A stretch of DNA of 64,000 nucleotides, from positions 32,001 to 96,000 of the IMG/VR virus record IMGVR_UViG_3300047160_007939. One strand, given 5' to 3'. Under the pieces are notes generated by a model that saw only the letters and a list, made by a program, of their open reading frames with translations, ran no database searches and was not told the origin of the DNA. Shown here one piece after another: positions 12,042 through 36,652 of this stretch. Source of the stretch: a virus. The translations under genes and the position numbers were made by a program. Numbering within the stretch: position 1 is the first letter of the stretch; every line of letters starts with the position of its first letter.

Positions 12042-13097
12042 TCAAACCAGCACTACTTTGGTGTCTACCCCCATTGTAGCGACAGTCTGCATAGCAGTCA
12101 ACCACGGCTCGATGAGGTCCACGAGCTGCCCGGCAAGAGCCTCGCGTCCCAGCTTCAGGCAGTCGTTCCAATCCATCCCCTCGGGCGGAGACAGGCGCAT
12201 CAGCTCGCAGCCGTGCTCCCGCAGCTCCGTACCCCAGCGGTAACCGGCCACGTTCCCCGCCGAGATGCCGCGCCGGTCAGGTCGGTCGTTGTCACTGGCT
12301 ACCAATACAGGCTGATGGGCCAGCTTCTCTCCCACCCACTCCGCGAGGTGGCAGCCCATCGCGGCAATGGCCGGGTAGCCGGCTGCCGCAAGCGAGAGCG
12401 CGTCGATGGGTCCTTCCACGAGGATGGTCGGTTTACAGCTCCACGCCTGGACCGCAGAGAAGACGCCCAGGCGGGCTTCACCCCTGGTTCGGGTCTTCGG
12501 GTACTCCCCGTCGAAGTAGCGGCCCTGCACGGCCACCAGGACGCCTTCCCGGTCGCGGATGGGAAAGAGCACGGCAGGCCGGCCATACCAGTCGGGATGA
12601 TAGCGAACGCCCGATGGCTCACAGTCTCCAACCATCAGCCCCCGCCGGATGAGATAGGCTTCGCCTTCGGTTCCGGCTAGGTGGACTACCTGCCGGAGCT
12701 TCTTGCGCCAGTCATCGCTCTTCTGGTGCGGTTCTCTCGTAGGAGACGGCTCGCTTTGCCCGTTCGGTTCTCTCGGCAGCAACGGCTCGCTCATTGAGCG
12801 CGGTTCTCTTGTACCTCTCGGCTCGGGCGGAGCGTCGTCATCGGTCAGGTACGTATCCGGCCTGGGCCTTCGCTGCCGGCGCGGACGAAAGACGCGGCTG
12901 TGCCAGTCCTGCCCGTCGAGGCGTCCTTTCGTGTGGCAGCGGTGGCAGATGTACTCGCCCGTCTCCATCTTCACCGCGAGGGAGCGATGGGCGCTGTCCT
13001 TCCACTTGCTGTCCCCGCAGAACGGGCAGCAGAAGCGCCGCTCGTACTTCTGGAGCGGGGCGTGCGGGTCGTAGGCTTCCAGCTCTTCGATTGTCAC
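12042..13097 (-). CDS. DNA primase (Zn finger + TOPRIM)
   Basis: CPFC..H..CHRC zinc finger; LVEGPIDALSL and DND TOPRIM motifs. Confidence 0.85.
   Translation of the reverse strand: MTIEELEAYDPHAPLQKYERRFCCPFCGDSKWKDSAHRSLAVKMETGEYICHRCHTKGRLDGQDWHSRVFRPRRQRRPRPDTYLTDDDAPPEPRGTREPRSMSEPLLPREPNGQSEPSPTREPHQKSDDWRKKLRQVVHLAGTEGEAYLIRRGLMVGDCEPSGVRYHPDWYGRPAVLFPIRDREGVLVAVQGRYFDGEYPKTRTRGEARLGVFSAVQAWSCKPTILVEGPIDALSLAAAGYPAIAAMGCHLAEWVGEKLAHQPVLVASDNDRPDRRGISAGNVAGYRWGTELREHGCELMRLSPPEGMDWNDCLKLGREALAGQLVDLIEPWLTAMQTVATMGVDTKVVLV
12729..12825 (-). repeat. TIGR-like dual-repeat array 1 (in-frame inside the primase linker)
   Basis: 6 alternating CGGTTCTCT/CGGCTCGCT repeats (+ strand reading) with 9-nt unique spacers. 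Confidence 0.85.
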
Positions 13098-13432
13098 GTC
13101 ACCCGCTCCGGTTCTACGCGGCTGATTGCCAGCCGGATGACCTCGGTGACCGTCTTGATCGCCGTCTGCTGGGCTTCGTCAATGTCTTTGCCTGCCTGAT
13201 TGAACGCTGCCACATCCATCTCCGGGCGGATGAAGAGCGGAACCCAGGCACGATAGTCTACCAGGACCGAAAGTGCCTGGAAGAGTTCCGGCAAGCCGTC
13301 CATCGCGTAGTGGTCTGCCTCGTCCCCCATCTGACAGAGACGCTTCGGCCACGCATCGACTTCCGGCATCAGGGTGTCAATGAAGGCGCGCTGCTCTTCC
13401 ATCGCGCGCCGGTGAAGCTCGTCGTCGGTCAT
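13094..13432 (-). CDS. hypothetical protein
   Basis: ATGA/GTGA overlaps at both ends. Confidence 0.55.
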   Translation of the reverse strand: MTDDELHRRAMEEQRAFIDTLMPEVDAWPKRLCQMGDEADHYAMDGLPELFQALSVLVDYRAWVPLFIRPEMDVAAFNQAGKDIDEAQQTAIKTVTEVIRLAISRVEPERVT

Positions 13433-13650
13433 CGAAGCAGCCTCTTCGCTTCCTCGGTGACGGCTTCCGCCACCCGCTCGATGGCTTCCCGGTACGCCTT
13501 CTCGCCTAACTCCCGCCGGAACCGGTAGTTCCACAGCCCACCCAGGTCCTGAAGAATGGTCGCCATCGGCTCGTCGCCTGCGACTTCCGCGTACTCCCCC
13601 AGGTCACCCAGCCGCTCTCCCAGGCTGCTGTTCACGTCGATGGTCGTCAC
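13429..13650 (-). CDS. hypothetical protein
   Basis: GAAAGGAG RBS before GTG at 13650. Confidence 0.6.
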   Translation of the reverse strand: MTTIDVNSSLGERLGDLGEYAEVAGDEPMATILQDLGGLWNYRFRRELGEKAYREAIERVAEAVTEEAKRLLR

Positions 13651-13939
13651 CCGCGCTCTCCTTTCTGTTCCTCGCCCACCGCGCATTGTCTCTATCGCGC
13701 TTACAATCCAGGCAGGTGGTGGACACCCCGCCCGCGTAGTTTCGCCGGTCCTTACTGAACTCATCCACCGGCTTGACTTTGCCGCAGTGGATGCAAAGAC
13801 GGTCGGTCAGCTCGCCGCCGTTCGTGAGCGCCTCTTCCGCCACCTGCCGGAGACGCGCTACTGTAGGATAGCGGAGCTGGAGTATCCGGTGCAATGCTAC
13901 CTGATACGTCCGCTCGCGCTTGGCTCCTTCCCCTCGCAT
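13604..13939 (-). CDS. small Zn-finger protein (CxxCGKVKPVDEF...CxxC)
   Basis: Motif typical of the N-terminal Zn modules of phage HNH/endonuclease VII proteins. Confidence 0.55.
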   Translation of the reverse strand: MRGEGAKRERTYQVALHRILQLRYPTVARLRQVAEEALTNGGELTDRLCIHCGKVKPVDEFSKDRRNYAGGVSTTCLDCKRDRDNARWARNRKESAGDDHRREQQPGRAAG

Positions 13940-14487
13940 AGATGCTCCTCAATCTCGGAGCGTGATAGCTCAATCACCTCCAGGCTTGCTCCGTACTCTT
14001 CCAGGACCTTCAGGCCGTCCTTTGGCCGGTTGTCTTCGAGCACCACCAGGGTTGAGACACCGCTCTGCATAATCAAGAGCGCGCAGGCCATACACGGCTG
14101 GCCGGAGACGATGAGCGTTCCGCCCTGGTACTCACTGAAGTTGCCGAAGATGAGCGCGTTCGCCTCGGCATGGATGCAGCAGGGATGCGCCGCGAGACCG
14201 AGGCCGCGCGGGAGGTTCTCACGGTAGCACGTCGCATCATTGCACGCGCCCCGTGGCTTGCCATTCCGACCGGTTGTGACTACCCTACCAGCCACATCCA
14301 GAACGACTGTTCCGTACTGTGCCCTCGGGCAATTACTGATACTCCCAACTGCGAGAGCTACTCGCATCCACCCGACGAGGTGTTCGCGTCTTCTCGCTGC
14401 CGCCTCTGGACGGCAGTCCGACCCTCCATCCAGTAGCTGTGCTTTCGGTCTCTCTGACACTGCAAGCAATATCGCTTTGTCTTCCAT
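13897..14487 (-). CDS. dCMP deaminase (ComEB/DCD family); start uncertain
   Basis: SNC..A..G..V...G.V.TTG.NG, CIHAEANAL and PCMACA motifs. Confidence 0.85.
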   Translation of the reverse strand: MEDKAILLAVSERPKAQLLDGGSDCRPEAAARRREHLVGWMRVALAVGSISNCPRAQYGTVVLDVAGRVVTTGRNGKPRGACNDATCYRENLPRGLGLAAHPCCIHAEANALIFGNFSEYQGGTLIVSGQPCMACALLIMQSGVSTLVVLEDNRPKDGLKVLEEYGASLEVIELSRSEIEEHLCEGKEPSASGRIR

Positions 14488-35334: not shown

Positions 35335-35385
35335 GGTCTATTCTCCTTTCATCACAGTCCGAACAATCTCGGCGCTCCAGTCATT

Positions 35386-35559
35386 CAGTTCTCTATTACA
35401 CCACGGCTCGCTACTCGTGGACGGTTCTCTCGTCGCCTGCGGCTCGCTCGAAGGCATCGGTTCTCTCGTAATCGTCGGCTCCGCTCCGATTAAGCGGTTC
35501 TCTCCATCCGGGCGGCTCGCTCGTAGCGTCTCGGTTCACTCCACAACAACGGCTTTCGC
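35386..35559 (-). repeat. TIGR-like dual-repeat array 6 (directly upstream of the Tas gene)
   Basis: 10 alternating repeats with 9-10-nt spacers. Confidence 0.9.
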
Positions 35560-36390
35560 GGCTTCCAGGTAGTCTTCGACAATCTCGAAGCCCACGAAGT
35601 CCAATCCCAGGCTGACGGCAGCAGCTCCGGCGTGCCCGATGCCGAGGAACGGGTCGAGTACGGTCTTCACCCGCTCCCTGCCGTGGAGCAGGATGCACTT
35701 CCTCGCCAGCTCGGTCGGGAAGGTGGCCGGGTGCGGACGCTGCCCGGCCCGGCTCTTGATCGTCTTGTAGGGTACGAACCAGACGTTCCCACGGCAGCGC
35801 CGGTCCACCCCACCGGGCTTTGCCCAGCGGGTCACGTTGCTCTTGTCCTGGTAGGGCACGCCCACGGCCAGCCGGTCCAGCGGCACGTCCCCCCGCTTCG
35901 TGAAGTGGAAGACGTACTCGTGGCAGTCGGAGAGGAAGCGCGGGCTGCTGATCGGCTTCAGGTGACCTATGGCTATATCACCTGTGATCCCAGGATAATC
36001 GCCCACGTCCTTCTTCTCGATGGCGATGCTCTTCACCCAATGGATGACATTCTGGAGTTCCAGGTGCTTCCCCACCACCATCGACACCAGGAACGGGACC
36101 CACGGATCGGTCGGCTTGCTTCCCAGCACCAGAAAGAGCGAACCATTCGGCGCAAGCACCTCATTCGTTGCCCTCGCCCACCGGTCCATCCACTCCAGGT
36201 ACTCGCCTCGCGGCCCACGGTCATCGTAGCCGCTGTACTCCACGCCGATGTTATAGGGCGGCGAGGTCACCACCACGTCCACGCTGCCGGGGTCCAGCCG
36301 GCGGCGCATCCCTTCCACGCAATCCTCGTGGAAGAGACGCACCCACGACCGGCCTACCCGCGCTTCATACGCGGGCCGCTCTAGGGTCAC
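35536..36390 (-). CDS. beta-class N4-cytosine/N6-adenine DNA methyltransferase; start uncertain, within array 7
   Basis: VVTSPPYN, HPATFP, VLDPFLGIG. Confidence 0.88.
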   Translation of the reverse strand: MTLERPAYEARVGRSWVRLFHEDCVEGMRRRLDPGSVDVVVTSPPYNIGVEYSGYDDRGPRGEYLEWMDRWARATNEVLAPNGSLFLVLGSKPTDPWVPFLVSMVVGKHLELQNVIHWVKSIAIEKKDVGDYPGITGDIAIGHLKPISSPRFLSDCHEYVFHFTKRGDVPLDRLAVGVPYQDKSNVTRWAKPGGVDRRCRGNVWFVPYKTIKSRAGQRPHPATFPTELARKCILLHGRERVKTVLDPFLGIGHAGAAAVSLGLDFVGFEIVEDYLEAAKAVVVE

Positions 36391-36652
36391 GGTTCTCTGC
36401 TGTATCACGGCTAGCTCGGTTGACACGGTTCTCTCTGATAACACGGCTCGCTTCTCTGTCTCGGTTCACTCGCTATGGCCGGCTTCGCTCGCGCGTGACG
36501 GTTCGCTTCGCTGACGTGGCTCGCTCCCACTTAACGGTTCCCTCTGGAACAACGGCTCGCTCGTACCGAACGGTTCTCTCGTGGTTTGCGGCTCGCTCAT
36601 GTACGGCGGTTCTCTATCTGATTGCGGCTCCGCTCCTACTGCACGGTTCTCT
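36372..36652 (-). repeat. TIGR-like dual-repeat array 7
   Basis: 16 alternating repeats with 9-nt spacers. Confidence 0.9.

Follow-up and report, generated by a model that had tools for sequence, protein, structure and literature searches.

Interspaced repeat arrays in an uncultured soil phage

The virus record IMGVR_UViG_3300047160_007939 is a single contig of 119,514 bp from an uncultured soil phage, and the window analyzed here is the 64 kb stretch from genome position 32001 to 96000; coordinates below are those of the window unless stated otherwise. Between 12.7 and 36.7 kb of the window there are seven co-oriented minus-strand blocks in which a 10-nt repeat, GAGCGAGCCG, alternates with a second one, GAGAGAACCG, and close to the right end of this region lies tas, encoding a Nop-domain protein. 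The blocks have the organization of the guide arrays of dual-repeat TIGR-Tas systems, which were first described in 2025 (Faure et al. 2025, PMC12045711), and we propose that the region very probably constitutes a dual-repeat TIGR-TasA system of a 119.5-kb phage, with 42 guides in seven arrays distributed among co-directional genes over 24 kb, and with the function outlined below.

As described in the text of Faure et al. 2025 (PMC12045711), dual-repeat arrays consist of two alternating repeats of 8–12 nt, termed edge and loop, separated by short (about 9-nt) spacers A and B to give a 36-nt unit. Here a unit is composed of the 10-nt edge GAGCGAGCCG, an 8-nt spacer A, the 10-nt loop GAGAGAACCG and an 8-nt spacer B, likewise totalling 36 nt. 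We assign GAGCGAGCCG as the edge and GAGAGAACCG as the loop because the truncated array termini are of the GAGCGAGCCG type: the array starts (cTGTGAGCCG, CTGGGAGCCG and TAGGAAGCCG) retain just the 3’ half of an edge repeat (...GAGCCG), and in arrays 1, 2, 3, 4 and 6 the last repeat is GAGCG(A), followed by unrelated sequence. The centre of the loop is A-rich (AGAA) and that of the edge is CGAG (C..G), which fits the published description of TasR repeats, in which the loop centre is A-rich, the edge centre has an extra pair, and both repeats share covarying 5’ box D and 3’ box C motifs (Faure et al. 2025, PMC12045711). Both repeats here start with GAG and end with CCG, and in two related loci (L058 and L061) both end with CCA; this concerted CCG/CCA change corresponds to the reported edge–loop covariation, with the base pairing itself predicted.

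There are 80 well-formed repeats, or approximately 93 if truncated and degenerate terminal repeats are added by hand, and the 42 loop repeats define 42 guide units, so that the initial annotation, which had counted about 85 repeats and 40 guides, gave a fair estimate. As parsed, 58 of 73 repeat-to-repeat steps are 18 nt long, and the minor length variants include edge repeats of 11 nt (GAGCGGAGCCG or GAGCGAAGCCG) and spacers of 9 or 10 nt. The 77 spacers of 8 nt are all distinct with the sole exception of TCCATTGG, which is present three times in tandem in array 2, in keeping with the earlier remark that nearly all spacers are unique; the GC content of the spacers is 53%, compared with 64.5% for the genome.

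The repeats show a strong strand bias. Exact copies of the loop 10-mer in the window number 22 in array orientation and one on the opposite strand, those of the edge 10-mer 17 and two, against a chance expectation (by our own arithmetic) of ~0.06 copies of each 10-mer in 64 kb. All 11 repeat chains (at least three repeats at 16–20-nt spacing) fall within the seven blocks on the minus strand and none is found on the plus strand, confirming the co-orientation noted previously. The blocks themselves were recovered within a few bases of their earlier coordinates, and a scan of the whole 119,514-bp genome adds no further arrays; the single extra chain comprises three edge-like words that do not alternate, at genome positions 2900–2945. 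No Rfam family matches the array blocks, and TRF misses arrays of such short alternating repeats.

The Tas protein

The product of tas passes the NCBIfam model NF052498 (TIGR_Tas_endo, ‘TIGR-Tas system RNA-guided endonuclease’) with 157.9 bits against a cutoff of 100 (E = 3.6e-46), the match covering profile positions 1–214 of 215. A profile of 42 homologous sequences compared with PDB sequences matches TasR (9mty, E = 1.8e-23) and TasH (21kl, E = 6.2e-10), followed by IS621 and ISCro4. The AlphaFold2 model of Tas has a pLDDT of 90.1, and the best ten Foldseek matches to it are all TasH or TasR chains with a probability of 1.00. The alignment with TasR begins at TasR residue 117, and residues 1–110 of the model are helices or coil. 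Pfam analysis reveals no HNH or RuvC domain in Tas, the only match being a weak one to Transposase_20, and as the protein is without a nuclease domain it is assigned to the TasA type, in which the Nop domain stands alone. At 388 aa it is longer than most of the homologues listed (roughly 264–428 aa), and the extra length falls at approximately residues 160–235, a region that is variable between homologues. The GTG start codon of tas is preceded by AAAGGAGAA, and this leader is conserved in a close relative (L057, described below). Prediction of a homodimer gave a score of 0.21 against a mark of 0.42, which is evidence neither for nor against a dimer.

A PY......GH motif in Tas aligns with Y289 and H296 of SpTasH with the same 7-residue spacing, corresponding to Y352 and H359, the latter being conserved without exception in the 42 aligned homologues. 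In SpTasH these residues are reported to be the catalytic residues of metal-independent cleavage of the precursor (pre-tigRNA) of the TIGR guide RNAs (tigRNAs), which the protein cleaves autonomously using this Y/H dyad (PMC13421893), and the dyad, located in a C-terminal loop of the Nop domain, is described as conserved in dual-repeat systems (Xu et al. 2026, bioRxiv 10.64898/2026.09.09.750476). We therefore regard Y352 and H359 as a candidate RNA-processing dyad.

A tblastn search of the genome with Tas returned the self match and nothing below E = 0.2, so there is no second Tas gene in the genome. With a single gene, its NF052498 match and the placement of arrays 5 and 6 on either side of it, the earlier proposal that one Tas gene serves the arrays is upheld. 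The features of dual-repeat TIGR systems found here are the alternating repeats and unit size, the truncated termini, the covarying motifs, a Nop-domain Tas protein and the Y/H dyad, and a terminal terminator is missing from arrays 2–7. These comparisons of sequence and predicted structure support the interpretation of the blocks as putative TIGR guide arrays served by a single Tas gene. The features of the region are listed in Table 1.

Table 1. Positions of the repeat arrays, tas and neighbouring genes in the window. Array spans include the truncated terminal edge repeats.
Feature	Coordinates	Strand	Description
DNA primase	12042..13097	-	Zn ribbon, DUF7146, Toprim; array 1 in interdomain linker
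Array 1	12715..12828	-	3 guide units; in frame in primase; all steps 18 nt; read as ...REPxxxSEP... linker
Array 2	24936..25359	-	11 guide units plus tandem triplication of TCCATTGG with its edge repeat
terL (large terminase subunit)	25354..28617	-	Intein-like insert; stop codon within array 2
Triple-HTH open reading frame	28775..30214	-	479 aa; three helix-turn-helix (HTH_3/XRE) domains at aa 30-260; array 3 at aa ~280-336
Array 3	29193..29377	-	5 guide units; in frame in triple-HTH open reading frame; read as ...ERAxxxERT...; all steps 18 nt
terS (small terminase subunit)	31666..32448	-	Start codon at end of array 4
Array 4	32437..32664	-	6 guide units; between stop of open reading frame 32662-33006 and terS start
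DNA methyltransferase 1	33373..34119	-	phrog_24333; longest open reading frame overlaps array 5 end, true start uncertain
Array 5	34027..34202	-	4 guide units; directly downstream of tas
tas	34168..35334	-	388 aa; Nop domain, TasA-type (nuclease-less); candidate processing dyad Y352/H359
Array 6	35373..35559	-	5 guide units; between methyltransferase 2 and tas; same-position array in relative L057
DNA methyltransferase 2 (MTase2)	35536..36444	-	N6_N4_Mtase; longest open reading frame starts inside array 7, true start uncertain
Array 7	36372..36674	-	8 guide units; upstream of MTase2

Arrays at gene junctions

All of the genes annotated near the arrays (primase, terL, the triple-HTH gene, terS, the two methyltransferase genes and tas) are on the minus strand, co-oriented with the arrays, and five of the arrays fill gene junctions, overlapping the ends of the genes. 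The first edge repeat of array 2 includes the TGA of terL, and the in-frame ATG (24935) of the next open reading frame (ORF) follows the last truncated edge of that array, in which 9- and 10-nt spacers and 11-nt edge variants disrupt any reading frame. The terS ATG (32448) overlaps the last spacer and the truncated edge of array 4, the C-terminus of Tas and its TAG stop codon run into the first unit of array 5 with the TAG in the first spacer, and the MTase2 TGA is formed by a variant loop repeat of array 6 with one change (GAGTGAACCG). The stop codon of an ORF at 36614–37042 similarly is a variant loop repeat, TAGAGAACCG, of array 7. The contacts of blocks with start and stop codons to which the initial annotation had drawn attention (at the terL stop, terS ATG, Tas stop and MTase2 stop) are thus each found within array sequence. 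We also note that the last loop repeat next to terS (32455–32464) is the variant GAGGGAACCG, whose GAGGG is ~11 nt ahead of the start codon and could also serve as a ribosome-binding site.

Between 24.0 and 38.5 kb, a scan that takes in arrays 2–7 and leaves array 1 outside, there are 8 terminator-like sites compared with 8.4 ± 2.9 in shuffled sequences, indicating no enrichment, and none of the 8 follows an array. The same segment contains 4 promoter-like sites, compared with 1.7 ± 1.4 in the shuffles (within two standard deviations).

The 1087-aa TerL contains an intein-like insert (Pfam Intein_splicing, aa 160–437, below the gathering score). A plus-strand ORF (27369–28106) is located within the segment encoding this insert, and there is a promoter-like site with a TG extension at 27369–27398.

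Arrays within coding sequences

Arrays 1 and 3 are in frame inside genes. Array 1 is placed between the segments coding for the Zn ribbon (aa 14–58) and for the DUF7146 and Toprim domains (aa 127–315) of the primase, and GC content by codon position is coding-like in the array-1 frame in both halves of the gene. The closest homologue (59% identity by BLASTP, 65% in the alignment) aligns with the primase from end to end minus ~26 aa exactly at array 1, and no array-1-like insert is present in ten more distant homologues. The best primase relative found in IMG/VR is 40% identical, and no array is present in its linker.

Array 3 sits after the third HTH domain of the triple-HTH ORF, in a frame that differs from that of array 1, and 7 of its 9 listed repeats are exact. 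In the same frame, GC content at the three codon positions is coding-like on both sides of the array (0.69/0.52/0.84 upstream and 0.73/0.44/0.79 downstream). Of 750 database matches to this protein a single one covers its C-terminal region, a 68-aa fragment that is 100% identical to the query, and the rest match the HTH region.

Steps of variant length are found at 0 of 12 positions in the two intragenic arrays and at 15 of 61 in the intergenic ones as parsed (Fisher p = 0.06), or ~11 of 61 after four parsing artefacts are removed by hand, and all five intergenic arrays carry variants. Among 133 arrays with at least 5 repeats in the window and in 68 related loci, 71 keep the reading frame, yet arrays 1 and 3 are the only ones crossed by an open frame that extends for 60 codons or more to either side; reading through therefore does not come about by chance in repeats of this kind.

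Relatives and spacer turnover

The exact repeat pair was found in 52 IMG/VR stretches, 44 of which encode a Tas homologue within the fetched flank, and among the best twelve examined the identity to Tas is roughly 33–46%. Two or more array clusters lying more than 400 nt apart are present in 22 of 58 loci. Three of these loci (L054, L055 and L056) have four or five clusters over about 10.4 kb and a fourth (L017) has clusters over 8 kb, and the remaining 18 span less than 3.3 kb, a figure bounded by the fetched flanks; a terL gene is located immediately downstream of one of the clusters in L055. As these loci also spread their arrays, the scattered layout is characteristic of this phage group, to the extent that flanks of up to 10 kb reveal it.

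The sole close locus recovered by the metagenome scan, L057, encodes proteins with 82% (Tas) and 78% (MTase2) amino-acid identity and has arrays at the same two positions. Compared with the window, its DNA is identical at 627 of 738 positions (85%) in the body of MTase2 and at 112 of 131 (85%) in the repeat columns, and at 35 of 92 (38%) in the spacer columns. None of the window guides is shared with the 377 unique guides from the relatives. Contigs from four soil sequencing runs of four studies, compared over 24.8–36.8 kb (arrays 2–7, with array 1 outside), are by contrast >99% identical, and their arrays vary by two substitutions (25075 and 29325) and a 6-nt (GA)3 indel in the first loop repeat of array 7 (36648–36659). 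This repeat has an extra GAGAGA that is lacking in the contigs of two 2025 soil runs, so that this guide unit is polymorphic through (GA)n slippage. No unit has been gained or lost among the four runs where the contigs span arrays; joints in soil contigs that have short sides (24 and 21 letters) at repeats were disregarded. With the soil runs near-invariant and the L057 spacers unrelated, we conclude that spacers are stable in the short term and replaced in the long term, and that the array positions persist. The initial annotation had considered that spacers invariant among relatives, along with a lack of small RNAs from distant arrays, would speak against its reading, and such invariance is seen within the >99% identical populations and is absent at 82% Tas identity, where L057 differs.

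It had also been suggested that the arrays spread within the genome. Direct traces of unit gain are limited to the local triplication in array 2. Copying between arrays is not apparent, in that 17 near-identical spacer pairs at a distance of 2 compare with a shuffled mean of 11.1 and maximum of 21, and the suggestion thus has weak support.

We found no match to Tas in isolated phages, and TerL has just 26–32% identity to terminases of Rhodococcus and Bacillus phages. A scan of genome contigs with the repeat pair identified 6 stretches. Four are contigs of metagenome-assembled genomes, L063 being the only one with two matches, and the other two are single matches in Actinoplanes and in Streptomyces. 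By our own estimate chance would give about as many single matches for 20 fixed bases in that collection, and the stretches do not point to a host.

Proposed function and alternative explanations

By analogy with published work on Tas proteins, transcripts of the minus-strand genes would carry the arrays, and a TasA dimer would bind each unit and cut within the edge repeats by means of Y352/H359, freeing 36-nt tigRNAs. Each tigRNA would then guide TasA to a 16-bp DNA site, and binding without cutting would block transcription or replication of a target in the host or in a competing element; TasA proteins are reported to bind DNA and to act as RNA-guided transcriptional repressors that do not cleave (Xu et al. 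2026, bioRxiv 10.64898/2026.09.09.750476). Each excision would also cut the carrier mRNA, either at a gene junction or inside the primase and HTH-regulator messages. Excision of guides from polycistronic mRNAs is plausible, because terminator-like sites at 24.0–38.5 kb are not enriched and none follows an array, the array ends overlap start and stop codons, and the Y/H dyad is kept. The absence of visible acquisition machinery, noted earlier, holds for the annotated ORFs, which are a subset of the genome, and agrees with the texts of Faure et al. 2025 (PMC12045711) and Xu et al. 2026, in which none is reported for TIGR systems.

Several observations weigh against this proposal. TIGR arrays typically end in a rho-independent terminator according to Faure et al. 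2025 (PMC12045711), whereas arrays 2–7 here are without one. The assignment of Y352/H359 rests on profile alignment instead of structure superposition, and there is no RNA data set among the sequencing runs listed with this phage DNA. With regard to the intragenic arrays, the whole basis for placing the C-terminal part of the triple-HTH ORF in the same predicted protein is the open frame and the codon-position GC, and the absence of length variants in the two arrays is suggestive only.

The search for guide targets also yielded no signal. Both tandem geometries were tried (spacer A joined to spacer B in reverse complement, or the two in the opposite order); two layouts with both spacers on the same strand served as controls, and re-paired spacers as the null. 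Against the masked genome of the phage itself, the 42 guides have 3 and 0 matches with up to 2 mismatches in the two geometries, compared with 2–6 in each of five re-paired controls. In 725 kb comprising 68 related loci and this genome, 412 guides (42 from the window and, as the count implies, 370 of the 377 unique strict guides from the loci) have no exact matches and 9 or 11 with one mismatch, compared with 3–14 in the controls. The initial annotation had named a lack of paired-spacer targets above background as a result that would tell against its reading, and in the DNA searched, from the phage itself and related phage loci, matches indeed remain at the control level. Searches of large public collections with 16-mers would be swamped by chance matches, as the text of Xu et al. 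2026 also states.

A 14-bp motif, GCCGGCTGGCCGGC, is scattered over the 119.5-kb genome, with 26 exact copies that lie in either orientation (including window positions 7983, 8421, 11358, 15077, 20584, 23618, 28503, 28684 and 31952). This dispersed palindrome was rejected as a guide target, the best guide match having 4 mismatches in 12 overlapping positions.

The first alternative, which we consider improbable, is that only the arrays flanking tas (5, 6 and perhaps 7) are functional and that the distal arrays 1–4 are decaying or silent relics, or passengers of recombination. The published record is compatible with this, in that the pipeline of Faure et al. 2025 (PMC12045711) searched 5 kb on either side of tas and located arrays upstream or downstream of it, and the text of Xu et al. 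2026 places arrays flanking or inside tas, the dual-repeat ones ‘less frequently’; moreover, most relatives have arrays just around tas, with the 18 of 22 multi-cluster loci noted above falling under 3.3 kb within the limits of the fetched flanks. However, the distal arrays are the best preserved of the seven, with 7 of 9 repeats exact in array 3 and 3 of 5 in array 1, and with all spacers of these two arrays 8 nt long. Their spacers are unique, arrays 2–4 are nearly unchanged in the four soil runs, the two intragenic arrays keep their frames, and the loci L054–L056 and L017 likewise have arrays 8–10 kb apart.

A second alternative is that the dispersed repeats act mainly at the RNA level, as Tas-dependent cleavage sites that divide up polycistronic mRNAs and reduce the primase and regulator messages, with DNA guiding secondary or absent. 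The array ends that coincide with stop or start codons at five junctions, the two arrays within coding sequence, the conserved Y/H dyad and the lack of targets in the phage genome or the 725 kb searched would all be accommodated by it. But edge repeats alone would suffice for such a role, and neither the strict alternation of edge and loop nor unique pairs of 8-nt spacers would be needed. In L057, furthermore, the spacers have been replaced and the repeats and flanks are 85% identical, which fits selection on, or turnover of, guide content, and published assays show TasA binding DNA and repressing transcription (Xu et al. 2026). We regard this explanation as improbable too.

The idea that the blocks are short selfish or structural elements with no relation to Tas (of the repetitive extragenic palindromic or miniature inverted-repeat transposable element type), or low-complexity coding repeats, can be effectively dismissed. 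In its favour, the translations of two blocks are charged linkers rich in proline. Against it, identical DNA repeats are read in one frame in array 1 and in another in array 3 and also occupy non-coding positions, the anatomy fits the published TIGR definition point by point with no Rfam family matching, and the 44 of 52 loci that were found by repeat pattern alone and encode a Tas homologue already contradict it.

Returning to the proposal that the arrays supply tigRNAs to TasA, a rather unlikely extension is that tigRNA biogenesis doubles as a post-transcriptional switch, in which TasA would cut at every edge repeat and, with its rising level, sever the primase and triple-HTH mRNAs and uncouple the terL, terS, methylase and tas cistrons where they adjoin, the dual-coding arrays in genes other than tas having been selected for this coupling. 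If so, a single protein would assemble a repertoire of 42 guides for DNA binding and would also set the time at which replication and regulator messages are shut down.

Comparison with known TIGR-Tas systems

The region is clearly a member of a known family, with a layout variant that the papers do not yet describe: the published text, supplementary tables and TIGRSafari aside, contains no dual-repeat arrays in genes other than tas or tens of kb away from it. The most similar phage-borne system is SpTIGR-TasH of the Salicola phage CGphi29 (Faure et al. 2025, PMC12045711; PMC13421893; PDB 9w03, 21kl), which is likewise dual-repeat with 8-nt spacers (a 16-nt guide) and a 36-nt unit. SpTasH is also a Nop-domain protein (fold match probability 1.00) with the C-terminal Y/H dyad that aligns with Y352/H359, but it has an N-terminal HNH nuclease that is lacking in Tas here. 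The 40.7-kb CGphi29 genome has one array region (15339–15765), directly after a 309-aa ORF taken as tasH, in contrast to the seven arrays over 24 kb in this phage; it was located by a lag-36 scan that at the same threshold recovers only 4 of the 7 blocks in the present window.

FpTasA of Flavonifractor plautii (Faure et al. 2025, PMC12045711) is likewise a solo Nop effector without a nuclease, is served by dual-repeat arrays and binds 36-nt tigRNAs, an RNA step that in this phage is predicted by analogy. Published arrays lie upstream or downstream of tas, whereas here most units are 1–21 kb from tas, between other genes. Division of an array has some precedent in the three sub-arrays of a stem-loop locus (Faure et al. 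2025, PMC12045711). In-frame guide units in disordered linkers are reported for BlTasA of Bifidobacterium longum (TIGRFinder survey, Xu et al. 2026, bioRxiv 10.64898/2026.09.09.750476), although those guides are inside tas itself and the hosts here are the primase (21 kb from tas) and the HTH regulator (5 kb); the same paper raises coupling between maturation and translation as a question for intragenic tigRNAs. CRISPR arrays similarly have interspaced repeats, unique spacers and guide RNAs (the processing of which is predicted here), but these have one repeat type of 25–36 nt, spacers of similar size and cas genes, rather than two 10-nt repeats and 8-nt spacers. No Cas family was found among the ORFs annotated here, and the region does not qualify as CRISPR-Cas.

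The natural role of phage TIGR-TasA and the origin of spacers are questions posed in the texts of Faure et al. 2025 and Xu et al. 2026, and the complete genome allows the entire 42-guide repertoire to be listed, most of it outside the ±5 kb of tas covered by the original survey. The guides of large phages are probably undercounted wherever a survey is confined to arrays adjacent to tas. Guide DNA is here shared with the coding sequence of two ordinary genes, and the phage makes testable the regulation of carrier mRNAs by Tas processing, the expression of all the dispersed arrays, and the replacement of spacers at fixed positions.

Other features of the genome

Five tRNA genes are located on the minus strand at 17852–18953, specifying Lys-ttt, Asp-gtc, Ile-gat, Trp-cca and one with an irregular anticodon loop, and four of these are confirmed by Rfam. 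There are imperfect tandem repeats at 3672–4578 (period 480, 1.9 copies, 73% matches) and at 6519–7063 (period 240, 2.3 copies, 76% matches). At 54135–54200, in an AT-richer stretch, there are 2.8 copies of the 25-nt unit GGCACGTTTCGTGCCAACTAAAGTA, which has a small inverted repeat within it; the site might be iteron- or operator-like. Finally, the first and last 60 bases of the genome contig both contain CACCCCCGCCGCCGCCACGACCA, and this shared end word suggests the terminal overlap of a circularly assembled or terminally redundant genome.

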